In this document: piece after piece, positions 1,199 through 17,640 of the stretch
Numbering within the stretch: the first letter of the stretch is position 1
Layout: each line of letters opens with the position of its first letter
Assembly: GCA_041641555.1 (NCBI GenBank)
Contig: JBEPYC010000019.1
Location: forward strand, 1-22,756
Length of the DNA: 22,756 nt
Source of the DNA: Chitinivibrionales bacterium
GTDB taxonomy: Bacteria; Fibrobacterota; Chitinivibrionia; Chitinivibrionales; WJKA01
Direction: 5' to 3'
Notes under the pieces: generated by a model
The model's database searches: none
Seen by the model: only the letters and a program-made list of their open reading frames with translations
What the model was told of the DNA's origin: nothing
Position numbers and translations under genes: made by a program

Positions 1199-3382
1199 TT
1201 GCTTATACAAACGGCTGCAGCGAAAACCATTCCGTATCTTATATTTCTTTCATGCAAATGCCAGATTAGGCCCTCTTCGCTTTGGCAAAAACGACCCTCC
1301 GAAAGGAACGATGGCGTGTCAAAAAATGTCCTCCCATATACCGAGCCTACCAATACATCACGAATTTCTCTTTTTTCGCTGGTCCTCGTGCTCCTGGTAT
1401 GTCCTGCGCTTTTTGCCGGGATTCGCCTGCCCTCACTGATCTCCGATGGCCTTGTCCTTCAGCAGAAAACAGAGGTAAGGGTATGGGGATGGGCCGACAC
1501 GGAGGAAACTATAACCGTCAGTGTCGCCGGGCAGAAGCATCAGGCGGAGGTAAAGGATTCGACCTGGGAAATCACTCTTCACCCGGTCGACGCGGGAGGT
1601 CCTCACGACCTGACCATTTATGGAGGCGACACTCTCACCGTGGCCGATGTCTATTTTGGCGAAGTCTGGTTATGCAGCGGCCAATCGAACATGGGGATGC
1701 GGATTAAGAATCTCAAAGAAGAAGACCAGGAAACAGAGATTGCCCAGGCCAACGATTCACTTCTTCGAATGATAACCGTAAAACAAACCTCCCTGCATGA
1801 ACCTGCCCTCGATTTCGTGACTTCCGGATGGAAGCTTTCGGTCTCCGATACGATCGAAAAATTCTCCGCCGCCGCTTACTTCTTTGGCAAAAAACTGCGA
1901 AAAGAACTGGGTGTCCCGGTTGGCCTGATCGTTTCAGCATGGCCCGGCACCCAGGCCGAAGCCTGGATACCGGATGAAGCCTTGAATTCCTGGGAAAAAT
2001 CAGTCTATTCCACGGATGAGCTAAAGAAAATCAACTCCGAGAAAAGTGCCCGACGTATTCGGTTCCGCACGCAACTGGAGGCATGGGAAAAGGCCGGCAA
2101 ACACAGCGGTCCCTTCAATGACCCAGGTATTCCGGACAGTTGCCGGAAGTGGATATTTCCTTCGGATGATCTTTCCAGCTGGAAAGAAAAGCAGGTACCC
2201 GGGGTCGTAGATACCATGGTAGAAAACATTGAGATCGACGCAGGCGTGTGGTTTCGGAGAACGGTTGACATTCCCGGGGAATGGAACGGTCGTGATCTCA
2301 CTCTCTCCCTTGGCCGGGTAGACGATTTCGACACGACCTGGTTCAACGGAGAAAAAATCGGGTATACGGGAAAAGAAACAGAAAACGCATGGAAAACACC
2401 TCGGGTCTACAAGATTCCCGGCAAACTGGTGAAACAAGGTAGTAACTCACTGGTCGTCCGCGTATGGGATCATTTCGGAGGAGGTGGTTTTTACAGCACC
2501 CCCGATTCGATATGGATTGGCCCGGAAGAACAATCCCGACAGGCATCCATACCCCTTGCGGGTACCTGGCATGTGCAAATTGAGCAGTATCGGCCAAGGA
2601 AGCCTATTGAGCGTATCGATGACCCTGATTTTCACTCGAGCCTGTACAATGGAATGATCGCACCCCTGAAACCGTTCACCTTCACCGGCGTGATCTGGTA
2701 TCAGGGCGAAGCAAACGCCAAACGGAATCCCGAGCACTACGAAACACTCCTTCCTACCCTCATTTCGTCGTGGCGAAGCGAGTTAGACAACGGAACGTTT
2801 CCTTTCTATGTAGTACAGCTGGTGAACTACCGGGAAATCGCATTACAGCCCATGGAGTCGAGCTGGGCACTCGTCCGAGAGGCTCAGGACAAAGTGTCCC
2901 GTTCCCTGAAGAATGTTTTCACCACGACCAATATCGATATTGGCGAAGCAGATGACATTCACCCGAAAAACAAGATGGACATCGGTCACCGTCTCGCACT
3001 TGCGGCTCTCGCTCAAACATACGAAAAGAAACTCGTCTACAGCGGTCCTGTGTTTCGGTCCATACAAAAGAAACGATCCACCTTCCGGATCCGTTTCGAT
3101 CATGTCGGCTCAGGCCTCACCACTCGTGGCGATGAGCCGGTGAGCGGATTTGCCGTAGCAGGGCCCGATGGCGATTTCGCCTGGGCAGCGGCAAAAATAG
3201 TGGGGAAAAATATCGTTGAAATCGAGCCACCTGAAAGCATCGACAACCCGACCTTCATTCGATATGCCTGGGCTGATAACCCCTCATGCAACCTGTTCAA
3301 CAAAGAGGGGCTTCCCGCGCGACCATTCAGGACCGACAGGCTCTCTTTTGGCGAAGCCGGTGTACATACTGCCCGGAAATAA
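1199..3382 (+). CDS. Sialate (9-O-acetyl) O-acetylesterase-family SGNH hydrolase with a signal peptide and an inserted GH2-like sugar-binding beta-sandwich
   Basis: 727-aa ORF. The N-terminal region is ...LVLVLLVCPALFAG IRLPSLISDGLVLQQ...GEVWLCSGQSNMGM, the classic N-terminus and GQSNM motif of DUF303 sialate O-acetylesterases. The central segment WFRRTVDIPGEWNGRDLTLSLGRVDDFDTTWFNGEKIG resembles a GH2-type sugar-binding domain. The annotated start at 1199 is TTG and there is no in-frame ATG before the signal peptide. The real start is more likely the GTG near 1316, which gives MSKNVLPYTEPTNTSRISLFSLVLVLLVCPALFAG. Confidence 0.85.
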   Translation: MLIQTAAAKTIPYLIFLSCKCQIRPSSLWQKRPSERNDGVSKNVLPYTEPTNTSRISLFSLVLVLLVCPALFAGIRLPSLISDGLVLQQKTEVRVWGWADTEETITVSVAGQKHQAEVKDSTWEITLHPVDAGGPHDLTIYGGDTLTVADVYFGEVWLCSGQSNMGMRIKNLKEEDQETEIAQANDSLLRMITVKQTSLHEPALDFVTSGWKLSVSDTIEKFSAAAYFFGKKLRKELGVPVGLIVSAWPGTQAEAWIPDEALNSWEKSVYSTDELKKINSEKSARRIRFRTQLEAWEKAGKHSGPFNDPGIPDSCRKWIFPSDDLSSWKEKQVPGVVDTMVENIEIDAGVWFRRTVDIPGEWNGRDLTLSLGRVDDFDTTWFNGEKIGYTGKETENAWKTPRVYKIPGKLVKQGSNSLVVRVWDHFGGGGFYSTPDSIWIGPEEQSRQASIPLAGTWHVQIEQYRPRKPIERIDDPDFHSSLYNGMIAPLKPFTFTGVIWYQGEANAKRNPEHYETLLPTLISSWRSELDNGTFPFYVVQLVNYREIALQPMESSWALVREAQDKVSRSLKNVFTTTNIDIGEADDIHPKNKMDIGHRLALAALAQTYEKKLVYSGPVFRSIQKKRSTFRIRFDHVGSGLTTRGDEPVSGFAVAGPDGDFAWAAAKIVGKNIVEIEPPESIDNPTFIRYAWADNPSCNLFNKEGLPARPFRTDRLSFGEAGVHTARK

Positions 3383-3410
3383 GTGGTAGCAGGATGTCGT
3401 CTGCTCTGCA

Positions 3411-3456
3411 TAAAAAAAGGTGGCAAAGGATTGAGTTCCTTGCCACCTTTTTTTTA
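3411..3456. terminator. Bidirectional Rho-independent terminator between convergent genes
   Basis: The sequence is aaaaaaa-GGTGGCAAAGGA-ttgagttc-CTTGCCACC-tttttttt. This is a GC-rich stem of about 10 bp flanked by an A-run on one side and a T-run on the other. It lies between the esterase stop at 3382 and the minus-strand stop at 3494. Confidence 0.6.
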
Positions 3457-3493
3457 AGAGGTGCTCTGGATCTGGCCAACGAGTTTAAAAGTA

Positions 3494-5365
3494 TCACTCT
3501 TTCTCAGGCGATCTGCCACTCCAGGAGATTATATAGGTGTCTTCTTCACGCTTGGTCTTGACCTCAAATCCTGAATTGTAGAACACCGAGAGCATTCCCT
3601 GATTCTTTGCAAGTACATTGGCCTCGAAACCGGAGACATCGCGTGCCTTTCCTGCCTTGACGAGCAGATCGAGAAGATAGGAGCCAATTTTTCTGGACTG
3701 CCAATCATCACGTACCAGAAAAGAGACCTCGGCTTTGTTATTGGTTTCGTTGAGATAGTACCTTCCAACACCGACAATGTGCTCTCCACCGGTCTCCTGA
3801 GTCACCGCAACAATCGCCATGTCTTTGCTGTAATCGACATTGGTGAACTCCTGGATGAAACGATGGGGAAACGCCTTGATTGGCTTGAAAAACCGGAATG
3901 CGATCGATCGCTCCGAACACATGTAAAGCATGTCTCGAAGCATCTTTTCGTCGGTGGGTTTCATCGGCCGAAAGAGTATTTCGGTACCATCGGGCAACGG
4001 TGCCCGTGTCTCGACATTCTTGGGGTATTTACTCGATTTCGGAGGCAGTACTTTCTGGTCCGCAAAAATATAGTTGCGCTTTTTGGCCTCTTTGAGGATT
4101 TCTCCTCTGAAATCCGGATGGGCGATTTCTGCCAGGGCAATGACCCGCTCCCGAATCGACTTGCCAAAGAGATAGGCGACCCCATATTCGGTGACCACAT
4201 AATGCACATCTCCCCGCGTAGTCACCACGCCGGCACCTTCAGTCAGCGTAGGGACGATCCGTGAAATGGAACCACCCTTGGCGGTCGAAGGAAGCGCGAT
4301 GATCGGCTTGCCTTCACGGGCCCGTGCTGCACCTCGGTTGAAATCGACCTGCCCCCCGATGCCGCTGTAAAAATCATACCCGATCGAATCCGAACACACC
4401 TGGCCGGTCATATCGACTTCTAAAGCAGTATTGATTGCAACCATACGGTTATGCTGACTGATCACAAACGGATCGTTCACGTATTCCGATGGCCGAAATT
4501 CAAACATCTGGTTCTCATGAAGGTATTCGTAGAGACGGTGGGTGCCGTAACAAAAACTGGCGGTAACCTTTCCACGGTTGATCGTTTTCTTCCGCCCGTT
4601 GATTACCCCCTTTTCGATCAAGGGGATGATCGCGTCGTTGAACATCTCTGTGTGAATGCCGATATCGTTTTTGTCGGCCAGATACTTCAGGACGGCTTGC
4701 GGAATGTTCCCGATTCCGACCTCCACAGTCGACCCGTCTTCAACCAATCCCGCTACATTCTGGGCAATTGCTTCGACCGTTTCATCGGGCTCTGGCACCG
4801 TAAACTCGACAATGTCCCGCTTGGTTTCGACGATAGCATCGATCATGTCGACCGGTATCACCGCATCTCCGAGTGTACGGGGCATATTCTCGTTTACCTC
4901 GGCGATGATCATCAGGCTGTTTTCGGCCGCGGATTTGACGATATCCACAGATATGCCCAGACTCAGATATCCGTTTTTGTCCGGGGGACTCGTCTGCACC
5001 AGGGCTACATCCAGCGGCACCTTCCCGGTCTTGAAAAGCTTCGGGATCTCGGAAAGGAAAATGGGGGTATAGTCGCCCCGCCCCTGCACGATTCCTTCGC
5101 GTACATTGGCTGCGAGAAAAAAGCTGAAGGTGCGGAATTTTTTGCTGTGTTCCTCATTAATGTAAGGAGCTATTCCCTGTGTCAGCAGGTGGTAGATCTC
5201 GGCATCGACAATTTCGTTGTTTCCGCTCACCAGTTCATCGACCAGAGTTTGCGGAACTCCACACCCGGTACCGATAAAAATGCGCGGTCCGCCGGGCTTG
5301 ATCGACCGAATGGCCTCAGTCGCCGATTTCACTTTACTTTTATAGAGTTCTTCCCATGAAGCCAT
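3494..5365 (-). CDS. Acetyl-CoA hydrolase/transferase-family (4-hydroxybutyrate/succinyl-CoA:acetate CoA-transferase-like) domain fused to a C-terminal Pat-type GNAT acetyltransferase domain
   Basis: 623 aa with an ATG start. The N-terminal ~430 aa (MASWEELYKSKVKSATEAIRSIKPGGPRIFIGTGCGVPQTLVDEL...) is typical of the AcetylCoA_hydro/transferase family. The C-terminal ~170 aa, encoded at the low-coordinate end (about 3494..4010), has GNAT features: ...RSIAFRFF..., ...MAIVAV..., ...AEVSFLVRDDWQSRKIG..., ...NVLAKNQGM.... These resemble the GNAT domain of protein acetyltransferase Pat. The gene lies 4 bp downstream of the ACD gene on the same strand. Confidence 0.85.
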   Translation of the reverse strand: MASWEELYKSKVKSATEAIRSIKPGGPRIFIGTGCGVPQTLVDELVSGNNEIVDAEIYHLLTQGIAPYINEEHSKKFRTFSFFLAANVREGIVQGRGDYTPIFLSEIPKLFKTGKVPLDVALVQTSPPDKNGYLSLGISVDIVKSAAENSLMIIAEVNENMPRTLGDAVIPVDMIDAIVETKRDIVEFTVPEPDETVEAIAQNVAGLVEDGSTVEVGIGNIPQAVLKYLADKNDIGIHTEMFNDAIIPLIEKGVINGRKKTINRGKVTASFCYGTHRLYEYLHENQMFEFRPSEYVNDPFVISQHNRMVAINTALEVDMTGQVCSDSIGYDFYSGIGGQVDFNRGAARAREGKPIIALPSTAKGGSISRIVPTLTEGAGVVTTRGDVHYVVTEYGVAYLFGKSIRERVIALAEIAHPDFRGEILKEAKKRNYIFADQKVLPPKSSKYPKNVETRAPLPDGTEILFRPMKPTDEKMLRDMLYMCSERSIAFRFFKPIKAFPHRFIQEFTNVDYSKDMAIVAVTQETGGEHIVGVGRYYLNETNNKAEVSFLVRDDWQSRKIGSYLLDLLVKAGKARDVSGFEANVLAKNQGMLSVFYNSGFEVKTKREEDTYIISWSGRSPEKE

Positions 5366-5368
5366 AGT

Positions 5369-7528
5369 TTAGGCCTTCCCTTTCGAGATAATAATGCGGG
5401 CATCAACAACAAATGCACCGTCGCCTTCGTATCCGACTTTGAGTGGATTGATATCGATCTCGTCGATTTCCGGAAAATCAAGTGATAGCTGCGACATTCG
5501 CATGAGATTATCGACGATGGCACCGATATCGACTCCTCGCTGTCCCCGCGCTCCAGTCAGTAACTTATACGACTTGGTACGGCGAATCATGCTCATACAT
5601 TCTTCCTCGGTAACCGGGGCGAGCGAGAATGTTACGTCTTTGAGCACCTCCACAAAAATGCCTCCCAGACCAAACATAAGCATTGGCCCGAACTGCGGAT
5701 CCTTTTTCATCCCCAGGATAACCTCTTTGCCTCCGCCAACCATCTTCTCGATGAGCACTCCACGCAATTCCGCATCGGGCTTCTTTCGTTTTACTCGAAG
5801 CATCATAAGTTCAAAGGCATCCTCGACAGCAGAGCGCTTCTCCAGACCAATCCGCACTCCACCCACATCGGATTTGTGAAGAATGTCCGGACTCGAGATT
5901 TTCATGGCAAGGGGGTAGCCAAGTTGCTCGCCGGCCTGTGCGGCGGTTTCAACCGATGTTGCAACCATGGCCGGGGGAAGCACAAAGTTGTAAGCACTCA
6001 TGATTGTCTTGGCATCGATTTCGCCAATCTCGTGCATACCCCGACTGCGGTAGGCCTTGATAATTTTTGTCACCGGATTCTTGTTCACCGCGAAACGCTC
6101 GACTGCCCGCCGCGGTCGCGAGCGATAATCGGCGTACTTGACCATTTCGAACATCGACTTGGCAGCTCGATCGGGTATGGGGTATTGAGGGATATTGTTT
6201 TCCTGAAGAACCTCGACGCCTTCAGCGACGGCATCGGCGCCCATAAAACAGGCAAGGATTGGTTTCTCCGAGGTCGAACTCAGCTCGACAATCGCCTCGG
6301 CAGTCTCTTTTGTCTCGGTCATCTTCTGCGGTGTCAAAATCACGATCACCCCATCGACTCCCTCATCCTGAAGCGCCAATTCAATGGCGGCCTTGTAACG
6401 ATCCCTCCCCGCATCGCCCAGAACATCCACCGGATTGCTCCATGATGCAGCCGGGGGTAGCACTGCAGAAAGCTTTTCGGCAGTTGTGTCGGCGAGTGCA
6501 GCCACTTTCAGGCCGGCCATCTCCAAAGCATCGGACATCATGATTCCGGGGCCGCCGGCATTGGTGATAACCGCTATCCGGTTACCTTTGGGCACCGGTT
6601 GATACGACAATGCGGTCGAAATGTCGAACAGATGTTCGATCGATTGCGCGCGAATCACGCCCGAGCGCTGAAATGCAGATTCATAGGCTGCATCGGCTCC
6701 CGCCAGACTACCGGTATGCGACGAAGCCGCACGGGCACCGGCGCTTGTTCGACCTGATTTGAGTATAACCACCGGCTTGCTTCTGGAAACCTCTTCGGCG
6801 GTACGCATGAAATCCTGCCCGTTGGAAATATCTTCGAGATAGGCAGCTATTACCCTGGTATGCGGATCCTTGTGAAGCACTTTCAGAAAGTCGACCTCAT
6901 CGACAGCTGCCTTGTTTCCTACCGAAGCCACCACCGAGAACCCGAGGTGAATCGAGCGAGCCCAGTCCTGCATTGCAGTGATCAATGCCCCGGACTGGGA
7001 GACGATTGCCACTCCTCCAGGGTGCCCCAGCTGCTGTCCGAATGCAGCATTGAGTTTTGACCATGGATTGAGAAGCCCCAGGCAATTCGGTCCGAGAACG
7101 GTTATCCGCTTCTGCCGCGCAAGCTGGATAATTTCCTTTTGAAGCCGTTTTCCGGTTTCATCACTCTCTCCAAAACCAGCGGTGATTATGATTGCAGCTT
7201 TTACACCCTTTTCGGCGCTCTGCTGAAGAGTTTTGAGGACGGCTTCGCGCTTGATCACCAGCACAACCAAATCGAGCTGCCCCGGGATATCCGAAACCGA
7301 TTTGTAGCAAGTCAACCCGAGAATCTTGTCTTCTTTCGGATTGACCGGATAGATGTCTCCCTCGAAACCCCCATCGATAATATTGGCAAGTATTGAATTG
7401 CCGACTTTTATGGGATTTGCTGAAGCGCCGACGACGGCAACAGAGTGGGGAGATAGTAGTTTCTCGAAGCTCATAAACGATTCCCCGATCACAGAAAGAG
7501 TGGCGGAATGAAACTCAGAAAAATACAT
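5369..7528 (-). CDS. ADP-forming acyl-CoA synthetase (acetate--CoA ligase [ADP-forming], fused alpha/beta; NDP-forming ACD family)
   Basis: 719 aa. The N-terminal CoA-binding Rossmann region is ...LLSPHSVAVVGASANPIKVGN.... The phosphohistidine-loop-like motif SSHTGSLAG is present. The C-terminal half resembles an ATP-grasp domain. The first ATG is at 7528, but the conserved N-terminus MSFEKLLSPHSVAVVGAS suggests the true start may be the ATG at 7474. Confidence 0.9.
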   Translation of the reverse strand: MYFSEFHSATLSVIGESFMSFEKLLSPHSVAVVGASANPIKVGNSILANIIDGGFEGDIYPVNPKEDKILGLTCYKSVSDIPGQLDLVVLVIKREAVLKTLQQSAEKGVKAAIIITAGFGESDETGKRLQKEIIQLARQKRITVLGPNCLGLLNPWSKLNAAFGQQLGHPGGVAIVSQSGALITAMQDWARSIHLGFSVVASVGNKAAVDEVDFLKVLHKDPHTRVIAAYLEDISNGQDFMRTAEEVSRSKPVVILKSGRTSAGARAASSHTGSLAGADAAYESAFQRSGVIRAQSIEHLFDISTALSYQPVPKGNRIAVITNAGGPGIMMSDALEMAGLKVAALADTTAEKLSAVLPPAASWSNPVDVLGDAGRDRYKAAIELALQDEGVDGVIVILTPQKMTETKETAEAIVELSSTSEKPILACFMGADAVAEGVEVLQENNIPQYPIPDRAAKSMFEMVKYADYRSRPRRAVERFAVNKNPVTKIIKAYRSRGMHEIGEIDAKTIMSAYNFVLPPAMVATSVETAAQAGEQLGYPLAMKISSPDILHKSDVGGVRIGLEKRSAVEDAFELMMLRVKRKKPDAELRGVLIEKMVGGGKEVILGMKKDPQFGPMLMFGLGGIFVEVLKDVTFSLAPVTEEECMSMIRRTKSYKLLTGARGQRGVDIGAIVDNLMRMSQLSLDFPEIDEIDINPLKVGYEGDGAFVVDARIIISKGKA

Positions 7529-7846
7529 TCATGGAACCGAGACCGCAGGTGCTTCTTATTCATGCAACAGGCGTGCCCCATCAGGTGCGACGAATAACCA
7601 TGCCGATTGCTGCCTGCATCGGGACCGTTTCAATCCCAGGAAGCTCCGCTGAAAGCGGCATGTGCGGTGCCTAGCCCGGCGCCGATCCAGGCACGTTCCC
7701 CCCGGCCTCTTGCCGGCCGGACCAGCCCTTGGACCACGGTACTACAGCGCCACTGCCGCCTCTGGACTGATCGATCCGAGGGAAATACAGGGTCAGATCT
7801 CAGCTCCACTGCCATGACAAAGAGGAACTCTTGACCGCAGAGATCG

Positions 7847-9217
7847 CTAGATTGCTCGTCCCCACTTCAATGCATTTTTATGAACGCTAAAATTGATACC
7901 CGATTGCACATATTCGTATCCGCGCGAGCAAAACGGCACCATCGTGAGCCGGCATGAAACCGGTTTGAACCTCTCCATGGCAATCCTGGGCAGCAGGCTT
8001 TTTCTGGCATTTGAGCAGGAAGACAGTACCAGCGGTACACTCTCGAAAGCTTCGGCGGCCGAGAGGGTTACCGGATAGGTTCTCTCACCCGATGACCGGC
8101 TATCCTTTGTGCTGCGAAGCTGAGCGATGGTGAGGGCTCCTGCTATGCGAAGAAAGATTCGGGGCGCAATTTTAAAGGCAGGTATCCAGATGTCGGCAGA
8201 GCGATTCTTCATTGCAGGTGTAACCATGCGCGGCACATTCAATTCCTGGATCAGATCAGCAAAAGAATCGAGCCTCAGCGATTCACCTTTGACCGCTATT
8301 CGCCAGAAAGGTAACCACATGGCATCGCCGGAGTCCCCGCCTTCGGCGAATGAAATCCGGGTCCTGACGAGTCTGCCATATTGCGCGGCCCACCCTACCC
8401 CGCACCGGGAGCAAGGCAACACCATCGACACTGTTGTCCCTTCAAGACTCCATCCGCAATCAGGGCAGAGCGTAGGGACGAACCGAACGCCTTCCTGAGC
8501 AGTGTCTCTGGCTTCACTCCCGAAATCGATCGGATCACAGGAGCCGACTCGTGTTCCGGTCAGCCCGTCGTACAAGACACTTCCCTGGTAGAAATACGGC
8601 CAGTAAACCTGACTCACGATCTCCCCAATGAATGCATTAATAGTATCACCGCGCCCAGCCCCGATGCCGGAATCCCGGGCGATTGCATTGGTGACAATCT
8701 CGGCCACCCGGCGGTCGGAAGCGTTGTCGGAGCGGGCCAGCTGAGCAAATGCCGCTCTTGCGGCTCCGTCGGGGTTCTCCTGAAAATGCTCGATAGAACT
8801 GTGTGCCTTGCTGGTGATGCGGCCAAGAAAGTGTTCCAGACTCAATGTTGGTTTGAGGAAAACACCTTCGGTCTTCTGCTCAACGAACCGGGCTTTCACA
8901 GCCTGAAGACGGTACCCCAGGGAATGGGGGATCCGGAGATCCGTTCTCGCACATATTGTCCGGTCGATCAGTTTGTGCTTGCTCTGAGTAACCCCCTGCC
9001 GAAACTCAATACCCTTGAATCTCCAATAAGGAACATAAAAGGAATACGCCTGGTGTTTCTCTGCGGCGGGAACATACGAAGAGAAGTATTGCGAAGCGGT
9101 GACAATAAGCCGAACCCGACAATACGGGCAGGTGAAGACCCGATCGGACTCGGTCATCTCTACCGGTGCCCCGCATTGGGGGCACCGATGATCGAAACGG
9201 AGGTCAGATCCGTTCAC
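7847..9217 (-). CDS. Double zinc-ribbon protein of unknown function, translationally coupled to the upstream SPFH gene (possible YdjG/YdjH-like partner)
   Basis: The track ORF 7847..9412 overlaps the SPFH gene by 209 bp, which is implausible. An in-frame GTG at 9217 overlaps the upstream stop by about 11 nt, which is typical coupling. The product carries two CxxC...CxxC ribbons (CPQCGAPVEM...FTCPYC and CPDCGWSLEG...LPCSRCG) about 300 aa apart. I recognise no other domain. Confidence 0.55.
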   Translation of the reverse strand: MNGSDLRFDHRCPQCGAPVEMTESDRVFTCPYCRVRLIVTASQYFSSYVPAAEKHQAYSFYVPYWRFKGIEFRQGVTQSKHKLIDRTICARTDLRIPHSLGYRLQAVKARFVEQKTEGVFLKPTLSLEHFLGRITSKAHSSIEHFQENPDGAARAAFAQLARSDNASDRRVAEIVTNAIARDSGIGAGRGDTINAFIGEIVSQVYWPYFYQGSVLYDGLTGTRVGSCDPIDFGSEARDTAQEGVRFVPTLCPDCGWSLEGTTVSMVLPCSRCGVGWAAQYGRLVRTRISFAEGGDSGDAMWLPFWRIAVKGESLRLDSFADLIQELNVPRMVTPAMKNRSADIWIPAFKIAPRIFLRIAGALTIAQLRSTKDSRSSGERTYPVTLSAAEAFESVPLVLSSCSNARKSLLPRIAMERFKPVSCRLTMVPFCSRGYEYVQSGINFSVHKNALKWGRAI

Positions 9218-10334
9218 CGCACTGATTACAGAAAACTGAGTTAGAAAGAATATCGGCCGAGCAGTGTGGACATTTACGCGATGACTCTTTTTGCTCTGCC
9301 GGTGTTCCACAACGCACGCAGAACTTAGCATTGGGAGTAAGGTTTTTAGCGCAGTTGGTACATTTACGGAAGACGAGTATCTGATGACCGCAGTACATGC
9401 AGAAGTGTGCATTCCGCGAAAGCGAATGCCCGCAATCGGGGCAGATCTGCTGATCGGTGGTCGGCGAGGCCTCAGAGGATCTGGCCTGCGGCTGAAAATA
9501 CTGCGAGAGCATTGCCGGCATCATCATCCCAAGTCCCATCCCCATTCCCTGCCCGCTTGCGGCGGGATTATCCGCAGCTTTCTCGACAGCCATCGCCGTC
9601 TTGAGTCTGGTCAGATCCCCCAGATCCTTGAAAAGTCCCAGCTTACTCCGGTCATCGATTGCACGCTGTACTTCCTGCGGCGGTGTTATCGAATTGATAA
9701 ACATGTGGGGCATGGCAAGACCAAACCGGGCCAGGTCTTGTTGCAATCGTTGCTGAAGTCCTTTTGAAAGCTCGGCGTAGGTCCCCGGCAGGTTGAAAAT
9801 CGAGTCCAGGTGCTCTCCAAGATGATCGTTGAGCCTCGAAACCAACAGGTCGCTGAAATACTCGGTAATGTCCATGGTGGATAGCGACGGGACAGTTCCC
9901 ACGATACTGTTTACGAAGAGAAGTGGCTGAACCACCTGCACGGTGAATTGCCCAAACGCACGAATACGGATGAGGCCAAGCTCGGAATCCTTGAATGCAA
10001 CCGGGTGACGGGTTCCCCATTTCCACCCGGTGAAAACCTTCATGTTGACATAGTACACTTCGGCGCGAAGCGGGCTGGTGAATCCCCATGGAATTGCCAT
10101 GATTTTGTTGAGCACCGGAATGTTACCCGTTTTGAGAGTATGACGTCCCGGTCCGAAGACCTGGATCGCTTTCCCATTATAGAAAAAAACCCCCACCTGA
10201 CTTTCCCTGACAACCAGTTGCGCTCCAAACTTGATCTCCCCTGAGCCTTTCTCGGGGATTCGGTGGACCATCTCCTCTCCGGTAGGATCGAACCACTCGA
10301 TCATTTCGAGAAAAACGGCGTTGTTTTTACCCAT
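9204..10334 (-). CDS. SPFH/band-7 (stomatin-prohibitin-flotillin) family protein of the YdjI/COG4260 type with a C-terminal triple zinc ribbon
   Basis: 376 aa. The N-terminus is MIEWFDPTGEEMVHRIPEKGSGEIKFGAQLVVRESQVGVFFYNGKAIQVFGPGRHTL...AEVYYVNMKVF, characteristic of the virion-core-protein-like SPFH family. A Gly/Met-rich linker (GQGMGMGLGMMMP) follows. Three C-terminal CxxC-x10-12-CxxC zinc ribbons are present. AGGA lies 7 nt upstream of the ATG. Confidence 0.85.
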   Translation of the reverse strand: MGKNNAVFLEMIEWFDPTGEEMVHRIPEKGSGEIKFGAQLVVRESQVGVFFYNGKAIQVFGPGRHTLKTGNIPVLNKIMAIPWGFTSPLRAEVYYVNMKVFTGWKWGTRHPVAFKDSELGLIRIRAFGQFTVQVVQPLLFVNSIVGTVPSLSTMDITEYFSDLLVSRLNDHLGEHLDSIFNLPGTYAELSKGLQQRLQQDLARFGLAMPHMFINSITPPQEVQRAIDDRSKLGLFKDLGDLTRLKTAMAVEKAADNPAASGQGMGMGLGMMMPAMLSQYFQPQARSSEASPTTDQQICPDCGHSLSRNAHFCMYCGHQILVFRKCTNCAKNLTPNAKFCVRCGTPAEQKESSRKCPHCSADILSNSVFCNQCGERI

Positions 10335-10435: not shown

Positions 10436-11812
10436 GTGAGAAACATATTATTTATCATGATAGCCCAAACCTTTGCCCGAACTGGAACGGTTGATGTGAA
10501 CTCAGGCCCGAAAAACTCGAATGTCGATCTAAAAAAGCTGCTCAGGGTTTTCCGTCAGAAAGACCGATATCTTCCAATTGCACCCGTCGGCCAGGGCGGG
10601 ATAGCCGATATCGTAAGCGCGTTCGACCGCCGCCTCAATCGGGTGGTCGCCATCAAGGAACTGCGAGCCGACAGCGCCAAAGATGAACGTCTGGTCCGCA
10701 TGTTTCTTACTGAGGCAAAACTCGTTGGGTATTTGGATCATCCGGGAGTCATCCCGGTGTTCGATGCCTTCCTTCGGAAGAGAAACCGTCTCTGCTATAC
10801 GATGAAACTTCTGGAAGGAAAGCCCCTGACAACGCTGATCAAGTCTCAGAGAAGCATTGGTCCGGCCCCCAATGAACAGAATAGTTTCCTGGAAATCTTC
10901 ATTCGCCTCTGCGAAACGATGGCCTACGTGCATGACCGGGGTGTTGTCCACCTGGACCTCAAACCCGACAATATCATGGTCGGTACGTACGGTGAAGTCA
11001 TGATCATGGATTGGGGAAACGCACACCTTTTCGACAAAGAACCCTACCGCAGGCATTTCGGGGCACATGCCTATGACATGCACCTGCTCTCGTCAACGGA
11101 TATCGAAAAAGGGGTTGTGGTTGGTACTCCACTGTACATGTCACCGGAGCAGACAAGAGATACCCTCGACAGTCTTCGTCCGCAATCGGACATTTTCTCT
11201 CTGGGTGTTATTCTGTACGAAATGATGACCGGCACGATGCCTTTTACCGGGGAGACCTTCAAAGAGCTCTCGGACGGTATCCGCACACACTTCCCGTATC
11301 CGCTCCACGAACTCAACCCGGACATTCCACGAAGGCTGTCCACGATTTGCGACAGGATGATGACCAAGGAGCCAGACCGTCGATTCTCATCCTGCCAGGA
11401 AGTGCTCTCCGAAATTGCCGACTACCGAAATTCCGGGCAAGCATTTTCATCGGAGAGTTTTCTTCCCGGTGAAGCGATATTCGAAGAAGGCGATCCCGGC
11501 AACTTTTCATTTGTCATACTTTCGGGGAAAGTCGAAATCACCAAAAAATCCGGTGGGAAAACCACGGTCCTGGCCTGCCTCGGCAAAGGAGAGGTTGTCG
11601 GCGAGCTCGCCATTCTCACCGGCACGCCCCGCTCGGCAACCGCCCGCGCAGTGGTACCTACTCTAATACGCGTCATGGGGAGTGAAGAAATCGAGAAAGA
11701 ACTGGAGAAGCTCTCTCCGTGGGTAGGTCAGATGATAACCGGCCTTTCCCATCGGTTTCTTGCCCAGAACGAGCGTATCATCGAACTTCAACGAAGAGAC
11801 AGAGAACAGTGA
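10436..11812 (+). CDS. Hanks-type Ser/Thr protein kinase fused to a C-terminal cyclic-nucleotide-binding (CNB/cNMP) domain
   Basis: 458 aa. The kinase shows a Gly-rich loop GQGGIADI, VAIKEL with the Lys, a catalytic loop HLDLKPDN (HLD rather than HRD), DWG in place of DFG, and YMSPEQ as the APE-like motif. The C-terminal CNB domain shows FEEGDPGNFSFVILSGKVEI, GELAIL and the phosphate-binding cassette PRSATARA. The start is GTG at 10436, or alternatively the ATG at 10457. Confidence 0.85.
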   Translation: MRNILFIMIAQTFARTGTVDVNSGPKNSNVDLKKLLRVFRQKDRYLPIAPVGQGGIADIVSAFDRRLNRVVAIKELRADSAKDERLVRMFLTEAKLVGYLDHPGVIPVFDAFLRKRNRLCYTMKLLEGKPLTTLIKSQRSIGPAPNEQNSFLEIFIRLCETMAYVHDRGVVHLDLKPDNIMVGTYGEVMIMDWGNAHLFDKEPYRRHFGAHAYDMHLLSSTDIEKGVVVGTPLYMSPEQTRDTLDSLRPQSDIFSLGVILYEMMTGTMPFTGETFKELSDGIRTHFPYPLHELNPDIPRRLSTICDRMMTKEPDRRFSSCQEVLSEIADYRNSGQAFSSESFLPGEAIFEEGDPGNFSFVILSGKVEITKKSGGKTTVLACLGKGEVVGELAILTGTPRSATARAVVPTLIRVMGSEEIEKELEKLSPWVGQMITGLSHRFLAQNERIIELQRRDREQ

Positions 11813-11816
11813 AATG

Positions 11817-13307
11817 TCACAACCTGCGCTGGAGGGCTTGCACAACGGTTTTCATCGCTTTTATTCTCGCAAACGGTTTGTCATTGGCTTCTACAATGGT
11901 CCATGGCGCATAGGTCGTACTCGTTTTCAGTAACATTTCTTCGACCGCCGCACTGTAGTCTTCCCATTTCTCCCGGTTGCGCCAGTCCTCATCGGTGATT
12001 TTCCACTGTTTGTGCGGTGTTCTCTGGCGAGCCTCGAAACGCCGCAACTGTTCGGCTTGATCTATTTGAAGCCAGAATTTTATCACCACCGCCCCAAAAT
12101 CACACCACTGTTGCTCGGTTTCATTTATTTCCCGATAGGCCCGAGACCACTGCTCTTCCGAGCAGAAGCCTTCCACGCGCTCCACCAGCACCCGACCATA
12201 CCAGGAACGGTCAAAGACAGTGATATGCCCGGCTTTTGGAAGAACGCGCCAGAACCGCCACATATAATGATGATCCTTTTCCTCCTGGGTGGGTGCCGCA
12301 AACGGAACGACCTCATAGCCGCGTGGATCCATTCCCTGTACGAGCCGCCGAATGTTTCCGCCTTTGCCGGCAGCATCCCAGCCCTCATACACGATGATCA
12401 CCGGCACTCTCTTGAGAAAGACTTCGTGTTCCAGTTCCAGCAGCCGTTTGCCAAGTTTTTTACTCGCGGAACTATATCGGTCTCGCGGGAGGTTCTCTGA
12501 AAGATCCACACTGTTGAGGATCGAAGTACTCAGATCCAGGGGGCCGGCAGACTCCTTTACCGGAGCGTCATGATGACCCTCTTTTCCCTGCGAGTTCGAC
12601 CCGGCGATCCGCCTCTCCAATGCATCGATAAGCGTGGTCAACATTTTGATGGTGGCAAATTTTTTGTCATGTGCCTCGATAACGGTCCACGGTGCCCATT
12701 CCGTGCCCGTCCTTTCCAGCATCTCTTCGAAGGCTCTGTAATAAAGGTTGTACTGCCGGTGATGACGTTTGTCATCGGAGGTAACTTTCCATGCCGTGGA
12801 TTTATTGGCCAGCAGCTTTTCGAACCTCTTTTTCTGCTCCTTTTTGTCGATATGAAGCAGAAATTTCACCAGCACGATCTGATCGTCGGAGAGATGTCTC
12901 TCGAAAGAATTGATGTCCGAGTACGCCTGCGTCCATTCCTCTTTGGGCACGATCTCATCCACGCGCTCCACCAGCACTTTGCCATACCAGCTCCGATCGA
13001 AAATTGCCAACCTGCCGCGGGCCGGGGTGCGAATCCAAAACCGCCAGAGCCATGGCCGGAGTCTTTCTTCCTGCGTGGGAGCGTTGGTCGGGTATACCTT
13101 GAAGCCGCGCGGATCCAGCGCAAGGATGAGGTTATTGATCAGCGTGCCTTTTCCAGCAGCATCCCATCCCTCGAAAACAACTACCACCGGAATTTTCAGT
13201 TTCCGGGCATCTCGTTGCAGCTTGCCTATTCTTCGCTCCAGCTCGCCGATAAGGCTTTTGTACTCGCTCTTTGGCAGCTTTCGATTGAGATCGATCTTCT
13301 CAAGCAT
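11817..13307 (-). CDS. Two-domain polyphosphate kinase 2 (class II PPK2 / polyphosphate:AMP phosphotransferase-like)
   Basis: Two tandem PPK2 domains each have a Walker A motif (VVVVFEGWDAAGKGTLIN and VIIVYEGWDAAGKGGNIRR) plus DRSWY and lid motifs. The track start at 13385 is TTG. I prefer the ATG at 13307 (MLEKIDLNRKLPKSEYKS...), which is preceded by the strong Shine-Dalgarno aggaggg with a 5-nt spacer. Confidence 0.9.
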   Translation of the reverse strand: MLEKIDLNRKLPKSEYKSLIGELERRIGKLQRDARKLKIPVVVVFEGWDAAGKGTLINNLILALDPRGFKVYPTNAPTQEERLRPWLWRFWIRTPARGRLAIFDRSWYGKVLVERVDEIVPKEEWTQAYSDINSFERHLSDDQIVLVKFLLHIDKKEQKKRFEKLLANKSTAWKVTSDDKRHHRQYNLYYRAFEEMLERTGTEWAPWTVIEAHDKKFATIKMLTTLIDALERRIAGSNSQGKEGHHDAPVKESAGPLDLSTSILNSVDLSENLPRDRYSSASKKLGKRLLELEHEVFLKRVPVIIVYEGWDAAGKGGNIRRLVQGMDPRGYEVVPFAAPTQEEKDHHYMWRFWRVLPKAGHITVFDRSWYGRVLVERVEGFCSEEQWSRAYREINETEQQWCDFGAVVIKFWLQIDQAEQLRRFEARQRTPHKQWKITDEDWRNREKWEDYSAAVEEMLLKTSTTYAPWTIVEANDKPFARIKAMKTVVQALQRRL

Positions 13308-13562
13308 TCGTCCCTCCTGGTGATAAAGGCCCCTCGTGCCAAAGTTACCTCTTTCAAGAACCCGGTCTGAACCTCTGTGCTCCAATAATCACCGAAAGTA
13401 CTTGTAATCACGAAGTGCCAATCGGCAAAATCGAAAACATAAGTGAAGCTTCGATGCAGAGGCTCGGTGGCTGGCATCTGTGTTTTGGTACTTGCAATGG
13501 AGATAACGCAGACACCATGCCTAAAAATATAACGGCCTTGCGGGAAACCAATATGAGGCGGG

Positions 13563-14783
13563 ATGAGTTGGCGCCCGGTTCCCGGGAGGTGTATATTAGA
13601 ACATACGGCTCATCTCCCAATTCATGCGAACCTTATGCAGTTTGATCCCTATCCGATAACCAACAGTCTTCCCAGTGCCGCCTCCTTTCATCCAATGACG
13701 GTGCTTATCGTCGATGATGAATGGGCGATCAGAGAAGTGCTGCAGAAGGCCCTGTCGCAAGCAGGGTATGTATGCCATATTGCCGAGTCGGCTGAGCAAG
13801 CTCTGGAAATCTTCCGAAAAATCCATGTGGATATCCTGGTGACAGATATCAAAATGTCGGGCATGGATGGCATTCAGCTCATCAGAAAAATCCGCGAGAC
13901 ACATGACACCAGCAGCATAGTAATGACCGGGTACCAGTCCCGTTTCTCGTACGAAGATGTTGTCGGAGTAGGTGCAAGCGATTTTGTGGGAAAACCGGTA
14001 ACACCAAACGAGTTACTCGTCCGCGTCCGGCGGATTGCCCGTGAGCGCCGGATTCTCAAAGAGCGAAACCGAAAGCACGAGGCCCTTCATGAGACATTCA
14101 AAAAACTGCGGCATGCCTATCACGATACGATCAACCGGCTGATCCGGGCTTCTCAATTCAAAGATGAAGACACTGGCGATCACGTCATGCGTATCGGACG
14201 ATTCAGTGCGCTCCTGGCGCAACACTCGGGTATGACTAACGCTGCGATTTCCAACATATTCTACGCCGCTCCCATGCACGATGTCGGCAAGATTGGGATA
14301 CCCGACAGCATTCTTCTCAAACCGGGTAAACTTTCGGACGAAGAGTTCGAGATAATGAAACGGCACACGCTGATCGGTGGATCGATTCTCCAGAGCCCGA
14401 AGTCTGATATATTAGAGATGGCCAGGGAAATAGCGTTAACTCACCACGAGCAGTGGGATGGGAAAGGTTATCCGCAGGGGATGGGGGGAAAACAGATCCC
14501 GCTTCCAGGAAGAATCGTAAAGTTGGCCGACGTATTCGATGCGCTCACCTCTCCACGTCCGTACAAGGAACCGTACCCCGTCGATGTCGCTATGGAGATA
14601 ATAATAAAGGAACGAGGACGCCATTTCGACCCCGACCTTGTCGATCTTTTCCTGTCGGTCCAGGATGAGATTTTCGAGATCAAGCGGAATGAAGGCGGAC
14701 TGCGCGAAGGTGAGCGTGATACGTTCCTCTGGAGTGAACGCGACCTGGGCTATCTTCCGTCCATCCTAAAGAAAAAAGAGTGA
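13563..14783 (+). CDS. Response regulator with receiver domain and HD-GYP domain (RpfG-like c-di-GMP phosphodiesterase)
   Basis: The receiver is MTVLIVDDEWAIREVLQ...ILVTDIKMSGMDG...KPV. The HD-GYP domain carries HDVGKIGIPD and HHEQWDGKGYPQG. The receiver begins at M45, so the true start is probably the ATG at 13695. No histidine kinase is adjacent. Confidence 0.9.
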   Translation: MSWRPVPGRCILEHTAHLPIHANLMQFDPYPITNSLPSAASFHPMTVLIVDDEWAIREVLQKALSQAGYVCHIAESAEQALEIFRKIHVDILVTDIKMSGMDGIQLIRKIRETHDTSSIVMTGYQSRFSYEDVVGVGASDFVGKPVTPNELLVRVRRIARERRILKERNRKHEALHETFKKLRHAYHDTINRLIRASQFKDEDTGDHVMRIGRFSALLAQHSGMTNAAISNIFYAAPMHDVGKIGIPDSILLKPGKLSDEEFEIMKRHTLIGGSILQSPKSDILEMAREIALTHHEQWDGKGYPQGMGGKQIPLPGRIVKLADVFDALTSPRPYKEPYPVDVAMEIIIKERGRHFDPDLVDLFLSVQDEIFEIKRNEGGLREGERDTFLWSERDLGYLPSILKKKE

Positions 14784-16205: not shown

Positions 16206-16982
16206 ATGCGCACGGCATTTACCGTTTGCCTTTTCCTTCTCCTTTCCATACGTTCCTATTCTGATACTACTGGAGTTTTCGAAGTGGATACTTCTTCCGA
16301 GAACACTGTTATTCAGGATCTCGGACCCCAGAGCACATCTGCCCAGGCCGATACCGCTCAACCGCTGCAGGAAACCATCGGGAATACAGACGGGCAGATC
16401 CGTGAGTTCACAGTTGAATCCCCCCTAAAAGGCCGTCCTACAGGTATCAACGCCCGTCTGTCGGACGCAAGGAGCCGGGTTGTCAGCGGAACGGTTATCA
16501 ACTCGATAGGAGTTGGCCTGTACGCTGTTTCCTTTTCTCTCGGGGTTTCTGCTTATTCCTATCAGTCCTCTAATACCGCGGTTCTGCTCTGGATGGGCTC
16601 TCAGGTCATGACAATTCTCGGACCGATTGTGTCAGGAGTCGGTGGTTCGAACGCATACGATGCAGCGACCCAGGACTATAACATGCGGGTCGCAAGACCA
16701 GTACACTGGAATTACTACCGGGCAGGGTGGGCCTTTGCCGGAGCGAGTACAGCACTCGCGATGGTATCGGTAACAGGTACGGATGGGACCGGGTTTTCGG
16801 CACTCGGAAGCCTTGCCCTGAGCATCACCGGGAAAGTAATGTTCGTTATACATACCGTAAAAGCAACCGCCTACACCAACTCCATTATCGATAAAGTGCA
16901 GGGCTTTTCGCCTACCGTTGGTTTTGCTCCAACACTTTCTCCACAAGGCAACCCTGGGGCGGCAGTGGTACTCAACTTCTGA
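16206..16982 (+). CDS. Hypothetical secreted or polytopic membrane protein with a signal peptide
   Basis: 258 aa. The N-terminal signal peptide MRTAFTVCLFLLLSIRSYS is followed by an acidic, Thr/Ser-rich region and then several Gly/Ala/Ser-rich hydrophobic segments (GVGLYAVSFSLGVSAYSY, MTILGPIVSGVGG, AGWAFAGASTALAMVSV). GGGAG lies 6 nt upstream of the ATG. I recognise no family. Confidence 0.5.
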   Translation: MRTAFTVCLFLLLSIRSYSDTTGVFEVDTSSENTVIQDLGPQSTSAQADTAQPLQETIGNTDGQIREFTVESPLKGRPTGINARLSDARSRVVSGTVINSIGVGLYAVSFSLGVSAYSYQSSNTAVLLWMGSQVMTILGPIVSGVGGSNAYDAATQDYNMRVARPVHWNYYRAGWAFAGASTALAMVSVTGTDGTGFSALGSLALSITGKVMFVIHTVKATAYTNSIIDKVQGFSPTVGFAPTLSPQGNPGAAVVLNF

Positions 16983-17244
16983 CAAACAGGATCTCTTCCT
17001 CGCCGGGGTATTAGCCAGTTCCCCGTATTACCTTCAGTTTAATCCTCGCGCGTTCTTTCGGCTTTACCATTGCCATTGCGTTACCGAATGGTATCCAGGC
17101 AGCCCCACTCGGAATTTCACACCAACCAAACAAGGCTGATGCAGTGGTATCGATCGCTACCCCCTCCCCTTCTAAGGCTCAATCATTTGTCTAAAGTTCA
17201 GAAATCCTTCCTCAAGCAACAACAACACAAACATTCTGCACGTA

Positions 17245-17268
17245 GTATATTCTTCTTATGGAATATAC
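17245..17268. promoter_or_regulatory. Perfect 8-bp inverted repeat (GTATATTC-N8-GAATATAC) centred on the arsR-family start codon; candidate operator
   Basis: Read directly: gtatattc ttcttATG gaatatac. This is a 24-bp dyad-symmetric site of the kind bound by winged-helix dimeric repressors, including ArsR/SmtB proteins. It overlaps the ATG at 17258. Confidence 0.3.
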
Positions 17269-17620
17269 CATCAAAAACATACAGCCGGAAGCCAAAGATC
17301 TTGCGGGGCTCTTTGGTGTGCTGTCGAACCCGCTTCGCCTGCAGATACTCAAGCTGCTTATGGATGCCTGCGCAGAGAACAACAACAGCGGTTTGTGCGT
17401 CCAGGAACTCAATGCCAGTATAGATGTTCCGCAGCCATACCTTTCGAAACATCTCAAGATTCTCGAGTCAAACGGGGTGCTCGTTCATCGACGGGAGGCA
17501 AACAAGATGTACTATGCATTTGCCCAAAACAGCTCTATTTGCAGAATTTTCGATTTTCTCGGCACCTGCTGTGAAAAGTACAGCGAGTTTGCGGCCTGGA
17601 AACGAACATCCAAAACCTGA
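17258..17620 (+). CDS. ArsR/SmtB-family transcriptional regulator (probably a BigR/SqrR-like persulfide-sensing repressor)
   Basis: 120 aa. The winged HTH is LSNPLRLQILKLLMDA...LCVQELNASIDVPQPYLSKHLKILESNGVLVHRREANKMYYAF. Cys residues occur at positions 38 and 47 near alpha2/alpha3 and at 95, 104 and 105 in the C-terminal helix. The gene sits 20 bp upstream of the persulfide-reductase fusion gene. Confidence 0.85.
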   Translation: MEYTIKNIQPEAKDLAGLFGVLSNPLRLQILKLLMDACAENNNSGLCVQELNASIDVPQPYLSKHLKILESNGVLVHRREANKMYYAFAQNSSICRIFDFLGTCCEKYSEFAAWKRTSKT

Positions 17621-17640
17621 ACCAACGGGGAAGAGACGCC

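Follow-up and report, generated by a model that had tools for sequence, protein, structure and literature searches.

A probable two-gene acetate-node operon in a Chitinivibrionales bacterium pairs an ADP-forming acyl-CoA synthetase with a CoA-transferase fused to a Pat-type acetyltransferase domain

We describe a two-gene locus in contig JBEPYC010000019.1 of a Chitinivibrionales bacterium (GenBank GCA_041641555.1; the whole 22,756-nt stretch analyzed is called the window here). A gene for an ADP-forming acyl-CoA synthetase (ACD; 5369..7528, minus strand) is followed on the same strand by a gene (3494..5365, 623 aa) that joins a family-I CoA-transferase to a GNAT domain of the type found in the protein lysine acetyltransferase Pat. 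Our favoured reading, to which we assign a probability of about 0.5, is that the locus is an operon at the acetate/acetyl-CoA node in which the ACD is accompanied by a Pat-like lysine acetyltransferase wired to it, with AMP-forming acetyl-CoA synthetase (Acs) as the likely target. The pairing probably controls whether the anaerobes that carry it make or consume acetate, and the fusion probably represents an architecture not yet described among Pat-like protein lysine acetyltransferases. Bacterial metabolic control by protein acetylation has its textbook case in the reversible lysine acetylation of acetyl-CoA synthetase.

The N-terminal part of the fusion (4085..5344) is a CoA-transferase module of the 4-hydroxybutyrate or butyryl-CoA:acetate type. 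Pfam scans of the 623-aa open reading frame (ORF) returned AcetylCoA_hydro (PF02550; residues 8-188, 5e-33) and AcetylCoA_hyd_C (PF13336; residues 274-427, 7.4e-66), and solved 4-hydroxybutyrate CoA-transferases matched this half at 1e-108 to 3e-131 (PDB 9vag at 2.6e-131; also 3eh7, 3d3u and 3gk7). An AlphaFold2 (AF2) model of the fusion has both domains folded (mean pLDDT 84, pTM 0.72), and Foldseek gave target-normalised TM-scores of 0.90-0.94 to 3gk7, 2oas and RipA. Glu240 (codon 4646..4648), in the motif GIHTEM, aligns with the glutamate at residue 238 of C. aminobutyricum AbfT (3gk7), which we take to be the catalytic Glu238 of that enzyme. This residue is kept in 209 of 226 fusion proteins, across which the motif SGxGGQxDF is conserved; the window sequence, SGIGGQVDF, is intact. 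AbfT/Cat2, Yersinia RipA and butyryl-CoA:acetate CoA-transferase have the fold, the active-site glutamate and GGQxDF in common with the fusion, at 35-44% identity over the Foldseek-aligned columns, but are stand-alone proteins of about 440 aa, whereas the window protein adds a C-terminal GNAT. Against the butyryl-CoA:acetate CoA-transferase equivalog TIGR03948 the fusion scored 288 bits, below the cutoff of 674.8.

A linker of about residues 431-459 (3989..4075; pLDDT 63-76), which includes a Pat-type 'YP..E' lead-in, connects the transferase module with the GNAT domain (residues 446-609; 3539..4030). Pfam GNAT models matched about residues 463-607 at 2e-6 to 3e-6. When the C-terminal 184 aa were compared with solved structures, Pat-type GNATs were the only matches: E. 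coli PatZ (9it0/9isq, 2e-19), 4nxy/4u5y (2e-14) and mycobacterial Pat (4ava/4orf, 3e-9; Mt/Ms Pat to 1e-7). The 194-aa chains of 4nxy/4u5y are deposited as 'Acyl-CoA synthetase' and are presumably the GNAT of Streptomyces lividans PatA. Glu546 (codon 3728..3730) aligns with the glutamates at PatZ 809 and MtPat 235, which we take to be the catalytic residues SePat E809 and MtPat E235; it is kept in 216 of the 226 fusion proteins, and the motif-B asparagine in all of them. The Pat-specific lead-in (YP..E...L.DG....RP..P.DE) is also present, the alignment starting at KYPKNVE opposite PYPHQLE(E) of PatZ, and the NCBIfam model of mycobacterial Pat matched the fusion at 1.1e-17, under its cutoff.

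The domain calls of an initial annotation, made from the letters of the window, agree with these Pfam results for both proteins, and the motifs that it quoted (SSHTGSLAG, IAFRFF, MAIVAV, AEVSFLVRDDW and NVLAKNQGM) were all found. Its assignment of the C-terminal domain to the Pat type is borne out by the PatZ alignment and by the structure matches. It had further held that the domain is of exactly the same type as the GNAT of enterobacterial Pat, and here the kinship stands while the word 'exactly' goes too far. In a rough neighbour-joining (NJ) tree of GNAT domains, which carries no support values, 17 of 18 ACD-linked Pat GNATs form one clade together with MtPat, and this clade holds no CoA-transferase-linked GNAT. 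The tree is suggestive of the CoA-transferase-linked GNATs being a branch apart from the ACD-linked ones.

The upstream gene encodes an ACD of the fused alpha-beta type. It is listed as 719 aa, and its true start is probably Met19 (ATG at 7474..7472), which gives 701 aa. A GGGGA Shine-Dalgarno-like element lies 7 nt upstream of the ATG at 7474 and none at the ATG at 7528; homologues are 700-701 aa long, and structural alignments all begin at residues 20-24. Pfam matches to the 719-aa ORF (CoA_binding_2, 1.8e-27; Succ_CoA_lig, 3.1e-53; Ligase_CoA_2, 2.4e-13; ATP-grasp_5, 1.9e-79, the ATP-grasp or beta part lying at 5387..6046) make up the complete set of CoA-binding, CoA-ligase flavodoxin and ATP-grasp domains, and the alignment with 8wzu, an ADP-forming 4-hydroxybutyrate-CoA ligase, spans residues 22-712. 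The protein scored 576 bits against 8wzu, 358 + 190 bits against the alpha and beta subunits of ACD1, and 349 bits against the N-terminal domain of PatZ.

The catalytic residues of the ACD are in place. Its phosphohistidine loop ASSHTGSLAG (residues 268-277; 6698..6727) contains His271 (codon 6716..6718), and the stretch AASSHTGSLAG aligns with ACD1 (4xyl), 2csu and 8wzu, which are of the same type, whereas in a residue-level alignment E. coli PatZ (9it0) has a 4-residue deletion at this loop and no histidine. A second conserved histidine, His551, lies in ILHKSD within the ATP-grasp part. Among the partner ACDs of related loci, His271 is present in 45/45 and His551 in 44/45, in keeping with the catalytic competence that the initial annotation had read from the loop motif. 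By these features the ACD is a true ADP-forming enzyme type and not a Pat-like sensor domain; it looks catalytically competent, with acetate as a predicted substrate. The ACD1 of Ca. Korarchaeum, the Pyrococcus ACD and the Nitrosopumilus enzyme 8wzu share with it the full set of domains and the two catalytic histidines, but a constant pairing with a CoA-transferase-GNAT gene is undescribed for these known ACDs, and the substrate of the window ACD is only a prediction.

On the minus strand, the ACD stop codon (TAA, 5371..5369) and the fusion start codon (ATG, starting at 5365) are separated by 3 nt (5366..5368; TAA-act-ATG), and the two genes are probably co-transcribed and translationally coupled. 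Two co-directional minus-strand ORFs at these positions, closely adjacent, had been noted before; the spacing had been put at 4 bp, one more than we find. In a promoter/terminator scan of 3300..7900, predicted sites were no more numerous than in shuffled sequence, and we therefore drew the limits of the operon from spacing and strand alone. Nothing in the whole window matched in Rfam or tRNA scans, and so the 370-nt leader of the ACD gene shows no known riboswitch.

We scanned one genome per GTDB species for the fusion and used the best 80 loci, all of which span the transferase end and the GNAT and are hence fusions, for neighbourhood counts. These loci were searched with the window ACD and with an Acs and a histone-deacetylase-type (HDAC) protein taken from two relatives. 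In 46 of the 80 loci a co-directional ACD gene directly adjoins the fusion, upstream in 36 and downstream in 10; the total comprises 33 ACD>fusion pairs, the 10 reverse pairs, and L013, L036 and L045, whose refined starts give gaps of -4, -4 and -17 nt. When only loci flanked by at least 2.2 kb on each side are counted, the figure is 32/54. Over 33 related ACD>fusion pairs the median gap is 12 nt, with 20 nt or less in 22 and an overlap in 8. The pairing of the two genes across genomes, which the initial annotation had raised, is thus found in 46 of 80 species, across phyla and domains and in both gene orders. The flanking genes beyond the module are wholly different between the window, Chitinispirillum and a metagenome-assembled genome (MAG) labelled Aminicenantes, and the pair therefore travels together.

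When the neighbouring ORFs of the 80 loci were all clustered without supervision, only six families recurred: ACD (50 loci), Hist_deacetyl (24), AMP-forming synthetase (22), an MFS transporter (10), a DRTGG/AAA_26 protein (7) and the Gpr1/Fun34/YaaH acetate channel (6). AcsA is thus among the neighbours in 19-22 of 80 loci and a class-I HDAC-type deacetylase in 24 of 80. The neighbouring synthetases pass the AcsA equivalog cutoff (998 and 971 bits vs 725) and carry the PX4GK motif (PKTRSGK in L004); the Acs gene is in the same operon or divergently adjoining in L004, L007, L033, L044 and L072. The neighbouring deacetylases are nearest to class-I HDACs and Aquifex HDLP in PDB matches, by which their class was judged, as none matched an NCBIfam model. 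GNAT writer, HDAC eraser and Acs target occur together in relatives such as L010, L012, L014-L017, L022 and L072, and Chitinispirillum alkaliphilum (L001) carries HDAC, ACD and fusion. The conserved deacetylase and AcsA neighbours, which the initial annotation overlooked in its reading of the locus, speak for a module of reversible acetylation at the acetate node; the annotation's domain, GNAT and pairing parts hold, while its view of the ACD as a detached piece of Pat does not, as discussed below. The DRTGG/AAA_26 protein follows the ACD gene in L069 (8913..9962) and six other loci of archaeal/Thermotogae type with the order fusion>ACD; it is presumably similar to the regulatory N-terminal portion of long phosphotransacetylases.

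The same architecture was found in more than 190 protein clusters. A word-indexed search brought up 119 clusters whose members are about 620 aa long, have the same domains and stand at 62-80% identity; their source names are generic ('GNAT family N-acetyltransferase' or 'acyl-CoA hydrolase/GNAT superfamily N-acetyltransferase'). A query with the GNAT domain against 1.84 billion representatives (50% identity clusters) returned 10,295 matches; the best 150, typed by domain, comprise 73 CoA-transferase+GNAT proteins, 16 of the classical Pat arrangement ACD+GNAT, 1 GNAT+ACD, and 60 with GNAT only or fragments. Because the 119 clusters agree in length and domains and 73 of these 150 matches carry a CoA-transferase, the fusion is real and neither a frameshift nor an assembly artefact. 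The hosts of the best 80 loci are Fibrobacterota, Planctomycetota, Acidobacteriota, Chloroflexota, Desulfobacterota (Smithella, Syntrophus and Desulfobulbus MAGs), Myxococcota, Nitrospirota, Verrucomicrobiota, Spirochaetota, Thermotogae and Actinomycetota, together with archaeal MAGs of Thermoplasmatota, Hermodarchaeota and Woesearchaeota. The architecture is already visible in databases under generic names, and it is apparently unstudied: a literature search for the fusion or for an ACD/acetyltransferase cluster, with paywalled literature outside its reach, found no paper, in line with the earlier remark that such fusions are functionally uncharacterised.

Variants of the architecture were also seen. 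The same GNAT branch is fused to a response-regulator receiver domain in P0130, P0162 and P0169 (about 330-360 aa) and to a truncated ACD in P0142 (625 aa), and a 4Fe-4S dicluster domain precedes the CoA-transferase+GNAT in P0154 and P0242 (about 960 aa). Longer members were considered as possible Rosetta-stone fusions with HDAC or Acs, and this was ruled out: the extra domain of P0154 and P0242 is the 4Fe-4S dicluster, and the tail of P0218 looks mistranslated.

A sister branch with a decayed transferase site served as a natural control. Among 34 diverse full-length representatives, 16 lack the transferase glutamate, in most cases together with decay of GGQxDF. We scanned 80 metagenomic loci of this branch (L085-L164; 82 proteins) from a 3-sequence alignment; position 240 is proline in 71 of the 82 proteins, and the GNAT base is Asp or Glu. 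Within these 80 loci we found no ACD or AcsA gene and a single HDAC. ACD adjacency was 32/54 in the intact clade vs 0/31 in the dead clade (Fisher p = 4e-9), and any partner (ACD, HDAC or Acs) in loci with at least 8 kb on both sides was found in 27/36 vs 1/15 (p = 7e-6), p-values that are indicative only, the loci not being phylogenetically independent. On these counts, linkage to ACD, HDAC and Acs accompanies an intact CoA-transferase site; the window protein is one of the intact group. The decayed domain is a pseudo-enzyme analogous to the dead ACD domain of Pat. Several divergent branches of the family, with P0187, P0223, P0248, P0257, P0235 and more as representatives, have lost the transferase glutamate and GGQxDF and kept the GNAT. 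A glycerophosphodiesterase-like ORF recurs in 15 dead-site loci, and L149 (~17848..19821) and L151 (~16434..18323) each have an apparent second full-length CoA-transferase-GNAT paralogue 6-8 kb from the matched one.

The sequences show the domain identities, the intact catalytic residues, the size and spread of the family and the conserved adjacency to ACD, HDAC and AcsA. The model that we favour goes beyond these, and in it what the enzymes do, which protein is the target, which way the flux runs and any allostery are inferred. The ACD (acetyl-CoA + ADP + Pi <-> acetate + ATP + CoA) would probably be the fermentative, ATP-conserving, acetate-forming enzyme in this Fibrobacterota-like lineage. 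AMP-forming Acs runs the acetate-forming reaction of ACD in reverse, at higher cost. The GNAT would acetylate the active-site lysine in the PX4GK motif of Acs and so stop the re-activation of acetate while the ACD produces it, sparing the cell an ATP-wasting cycle, and its characterised relatives do all inactivate enzymes of the Acs type; in many relatives the neighbouring class-I HDAC/AcuC-like deacetylase would reverse the mark. The dead ACD-like sensor of Pat would have been replaced by a 4-hydroxybutyrate/butyrate-type CoA-transferase whose catalytic site is retained in this clade, and this module may bind or turn over acetyl-CoA, acetate and short-chain acyl-CoAs, coupling GNAT activity to the state of the pool. 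According to a 2021 review, all the characterised Pat-type GNATs that it covers act on AMP-forming acyl-CoA synthetases and combine a sensor domain (dead ACD-like, cNMP, ACT and NADP among others) with the GNAT, and none of the five architectural types of bacterial GNAT lysine acetyltransferase has a CoA-transferase (PMC8556138). By analogy, the CoA-transferase sits where other Pat-like enzymes have their sensor domains, and in close relatives this GNAT likewise comes fused to a receiver domain or with a 4Fe-4S domain ahead of it. For Chitinispirillum alkaliphilum, which is without pta-ackA, a one-step acetyl-CoA synthetase has been proposed to form acetate and ATP; the gene type of CHISP_0439 is unstated there (PMC4814513).

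We also put forward, tentatively and as a rather doubtful proposition, a more specific version that joins these elements. Here a working CoA-transferase would itself be the sensor that gates the fused GNAT, in complex with the ACD, and would steer acetate flux through acylation of Acs. The fraction of covalent glutamyl-CoA thioester, set by the acetyl-CoA/acetate or acyl-CoA/acid ratio, would do the gating, and with the fusion physically complexed with the co-translated ACD, one assembly could both catalyse the flux and decide its direction, ATP-yielding or ATP-consuming. In this version the fusion would count as the sixth architectural type among prokaryotic lysine acetyltransferases, spread widely over anaerobic bacteria and archaea, and its pseudo-enzyme offshoot would recapitulate the origin of the dead ACD domain of Pat.

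Other explanations account for parts of the same data. The ACD-fed CoA-transferase could instead supply the donor, an idea that goes back to the initial annotation; it would make a non-acetyl acyl-CoA from free acid (propionyl-, butyryl-, 4-hydroxybutyryl- or lactyl-CoA are candidates) with which the fused GNAT would acylate lysines on the spot, the mark reporting which acid is present. In its favour, this clade retains Glu240 and the oxyanion motif, ACD adjacency is confined to intact transferase sites, and there is a precedent in trans in E. coli, where lactyl-CoA made by the CoA-transferase YdiF serves the GNAT YiaC in the lactylation of lysines (PMC9636275). YdiF and YiaC thus likewise place a CoA-transferase and a lysine-acylating GNAT in one pathway, but they are separate proteins of other CoA-transferase and GNAT families, neither fused nor ACD-linked. 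The recurrent neighbours, however, are acetate-specific (an AcsA equivalog and an acetate channel), and divergent branches keep the GNAT despite a decayed transferase site, so that a fused donor factory is not generally needed; we judge donor supply possible but unlikely. Still less probable, in our view, is that transferase and ACD form an ATP-yielding cycle (acyl-CoA + acetate -> acid + acetyl-CoA; acetyl-CoA + ADP + Pi -> acetate + ATP) and that the GNAT regulates the ACD or the transferase itself and not Acs. Such a cycle would suit the close adjacency of the two genes, which is seen in either order and probably comes with translational coupling, and the loss of this adjacency where the transferase site is dead. 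The logic is like that of the established acetate:succinate CoA-transferase/succinyl-CoA synthetase cycle. Characterised Pat-type GNATs recognise a PX4GK motif, yet this motif is absent from both the ACD and the transferase module, and the recurrent AcsA and deacetylase neighbours would be left unexplained.

The initial annotation had proposed that Pat's ACD-like part is encoded here by a gene of its own, which would make the ACD a trans-acting equivalent of the N-terminal regulatory domain of Pat with little catalysis of its own. The order ACD>GNAT does mirror type I Pat and GNAT>ACD type II (PMC8556138), and the tight coupling suggests a complex. Nevertheless, both catalytic histidines are retained almost throughout the partner ACDs, the full phosphohistidine loop that is deleted in PatZ is kept, and the ACD is far closer to working ligases than to PatZ (576 vs 349 bits); loop, histidines and bit scores identify it as a bona fide enzyme type, and we rejected this proposal as very improbable. 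We see slightly less prospect again for a GNAT that acetylates an amine metabolite, with the HDAC-like neighbour as the amidohydrolase for the same compound. Pfam GNAT scores are modest, GNATs are functionally promiscuous, and the Hist_deacetyl family does include acetylpolyamine amidohydrolases. Yet the solved relatives are all Pat-type, those identified (PatZ and mycobacterial Pat) being protein acetyltransferases, the Pat-specific N-terminal lead-in is present, the closest matches of the HDAC are class-I protein deacetylases and HDLP, and AcsA is a recurrent neighbour.

Several observations weigh against our favoured model of reversible acetylation at the acetate node. Of the module's parts, the window contains the ACD and the fusion only, with no HDAC or Acs gene within its 22.7 kb. 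Acs or HDAC lies within 10 kb in just about one-quarter to one-third of related loci, 9 of 36 fully flanked loci (at least 8 kb on both sides) have none of ACD, HDAC and Acs, and the lack of phylogenetic independence touches all of these neighbourhood counts. The ACD falls just under the cutoff of the NCBIfam model AcCoA-syn-alpha TIGR02717 (558.8 vs 567.15 bits), and its best equivalog match is the 4-hydroxybutyrate-CoA ligase (670 vs a cutoff of 1300). In the acetyl-CoA P-loop of the GNAT, which reads QSRKIG against the pattern Q/R-x-x-G-x-G/A, Lys559 (AAA, 3689..3691) replaces the usual first glycine, which is present in 220 of 226 relatives and in all 117 close homologues. Five other members have K, R or D at this position (L029, P0141, L060, L083 and L049), and because K or R recurs in four of them the substitution is probably tolerated, although the window enzyme could be atypical. 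Finally, the sequence data fit the two roles of the transferase, sensor or co-enzyme on the one hand and supply of an acyl donor on the other, equally well.

We place the fusion and its operon beside the Pat-like sensor-GNAT acetyltransferases and modules like acsA-acuABC. Type I Pat (PatZ/YfiQ of Salmonella and E. coli) is of the same GNAT superfamily branch and gives the best match among solved structures (2e-19), with the catalytic glutamate and the YP..E lead-in in common; like the fusion, it has a large acyl-CoA-related N-terminal module before a C-terminal GNAT, and Acs is the expected target of both. The module of Pat, however, is NDP-forming synthetase-like, whereas that of the fusion is a family-I CoA-transferase with its catalytic glutamate. 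Type I and II Pat (PatZ/YfiQ, SlPatA) are defined by an NDP-forming acyl-CoA synthetase-like regulatory domain, without the catalytic His, in the GNAT polypeptide, which the fusion lacks; in the window the ACD is separate and catalytically intact by sequence, and the GNATs fall on opposite sides of the rough NJ split. In Bacillus subtilis, the GNAT AcuA and the class-I HDAC-type deacetylase AcuC are encoded beside acsA (acsA-acuABC; PMC8556138). Relatives of the window locus resemble it in clustering a GNAT writer, a Zn-dependent HDAC-type eraser and an Acs target, but AcuA is a stand-alone GNAT of another branch, the B. subtilis cluster has no CoA-transferase or ACD, and the window carries only the ACD and the writer.

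The remainder of the window holds genes of other kinds. Convergent with the fusion gene is a 727-aa carbohydrate esterase of the SASA family (sialate O-acetylesterase type; 1199..3382, plus strand) with a GH2 sugar-binding-like segment; it would be an acetate-releasing enzyme beside an acetate-node operon, but it is not conserved in relatives, and its position is hence probably coincidence. Upstream of the ACD operon and in the same direction lie a 521-aa Cys-rich ORF without a Pfam match (7847..9412, minus strand) and an SPFH/Band_7 protein with triple zinc-ribbon motifs (9204..10334, minus strand). As listed, these two overlap by about 200 nt; the 521-aa ORF probably begins further downstream. 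The gene for a Ser/Thr protein kinase whose C-terminal domain binds cyclic nucleotides by prediction (10436..11812, plus strand) is convergent with the gene for a two-domain polyphosphate kinase 2 (PPK2; 11817..13385, minus strand; 1.5e-154), after which comes a response-regulator/HD-GYP-type HD_5 protein (13563..14783). Further along, a small ArsR-type regulator (17258..17620) stands ahead of an 816-aa protein (17641..20091, plus strand) with Pyr_redox_2 (CoA-disulfide-reductase-like), rhodanese, TusA and DsrE/DrsE_2 domains, which looks like a sulfur-trafficking fusion.

If our reading is correct, the fusion would add to the known lysine acetyltransferases an architectural type in which the 'sensor' is apparently still an enzyme and is genetically tied to the ATP-conserving ACD. 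The family is abundant in little-studied anaerobes of the Fibrobacterota, Planctomycetota, Acidobacteriota, Desulfobacterota, Chloroflexota and Thermotogae, and also in archaea, and ACD may take the place of Pta-AckA in many of these organisms, as has been proposed for Chitinispirillum alkaliphilum (PMC4814513). The series from intact to dead CoA-transferase sites offers natural material on how regulatory pseudo-enzyme domains evolve. The finding bears on protein acetylation in bacteria and archaea and on anaerobic energy metabolism, and, if the model holds, it would provide a testable answer to how fermenters that have both ADP-forming and AMP-forming acetyl-CoA synthetases avoid a futile cycle.

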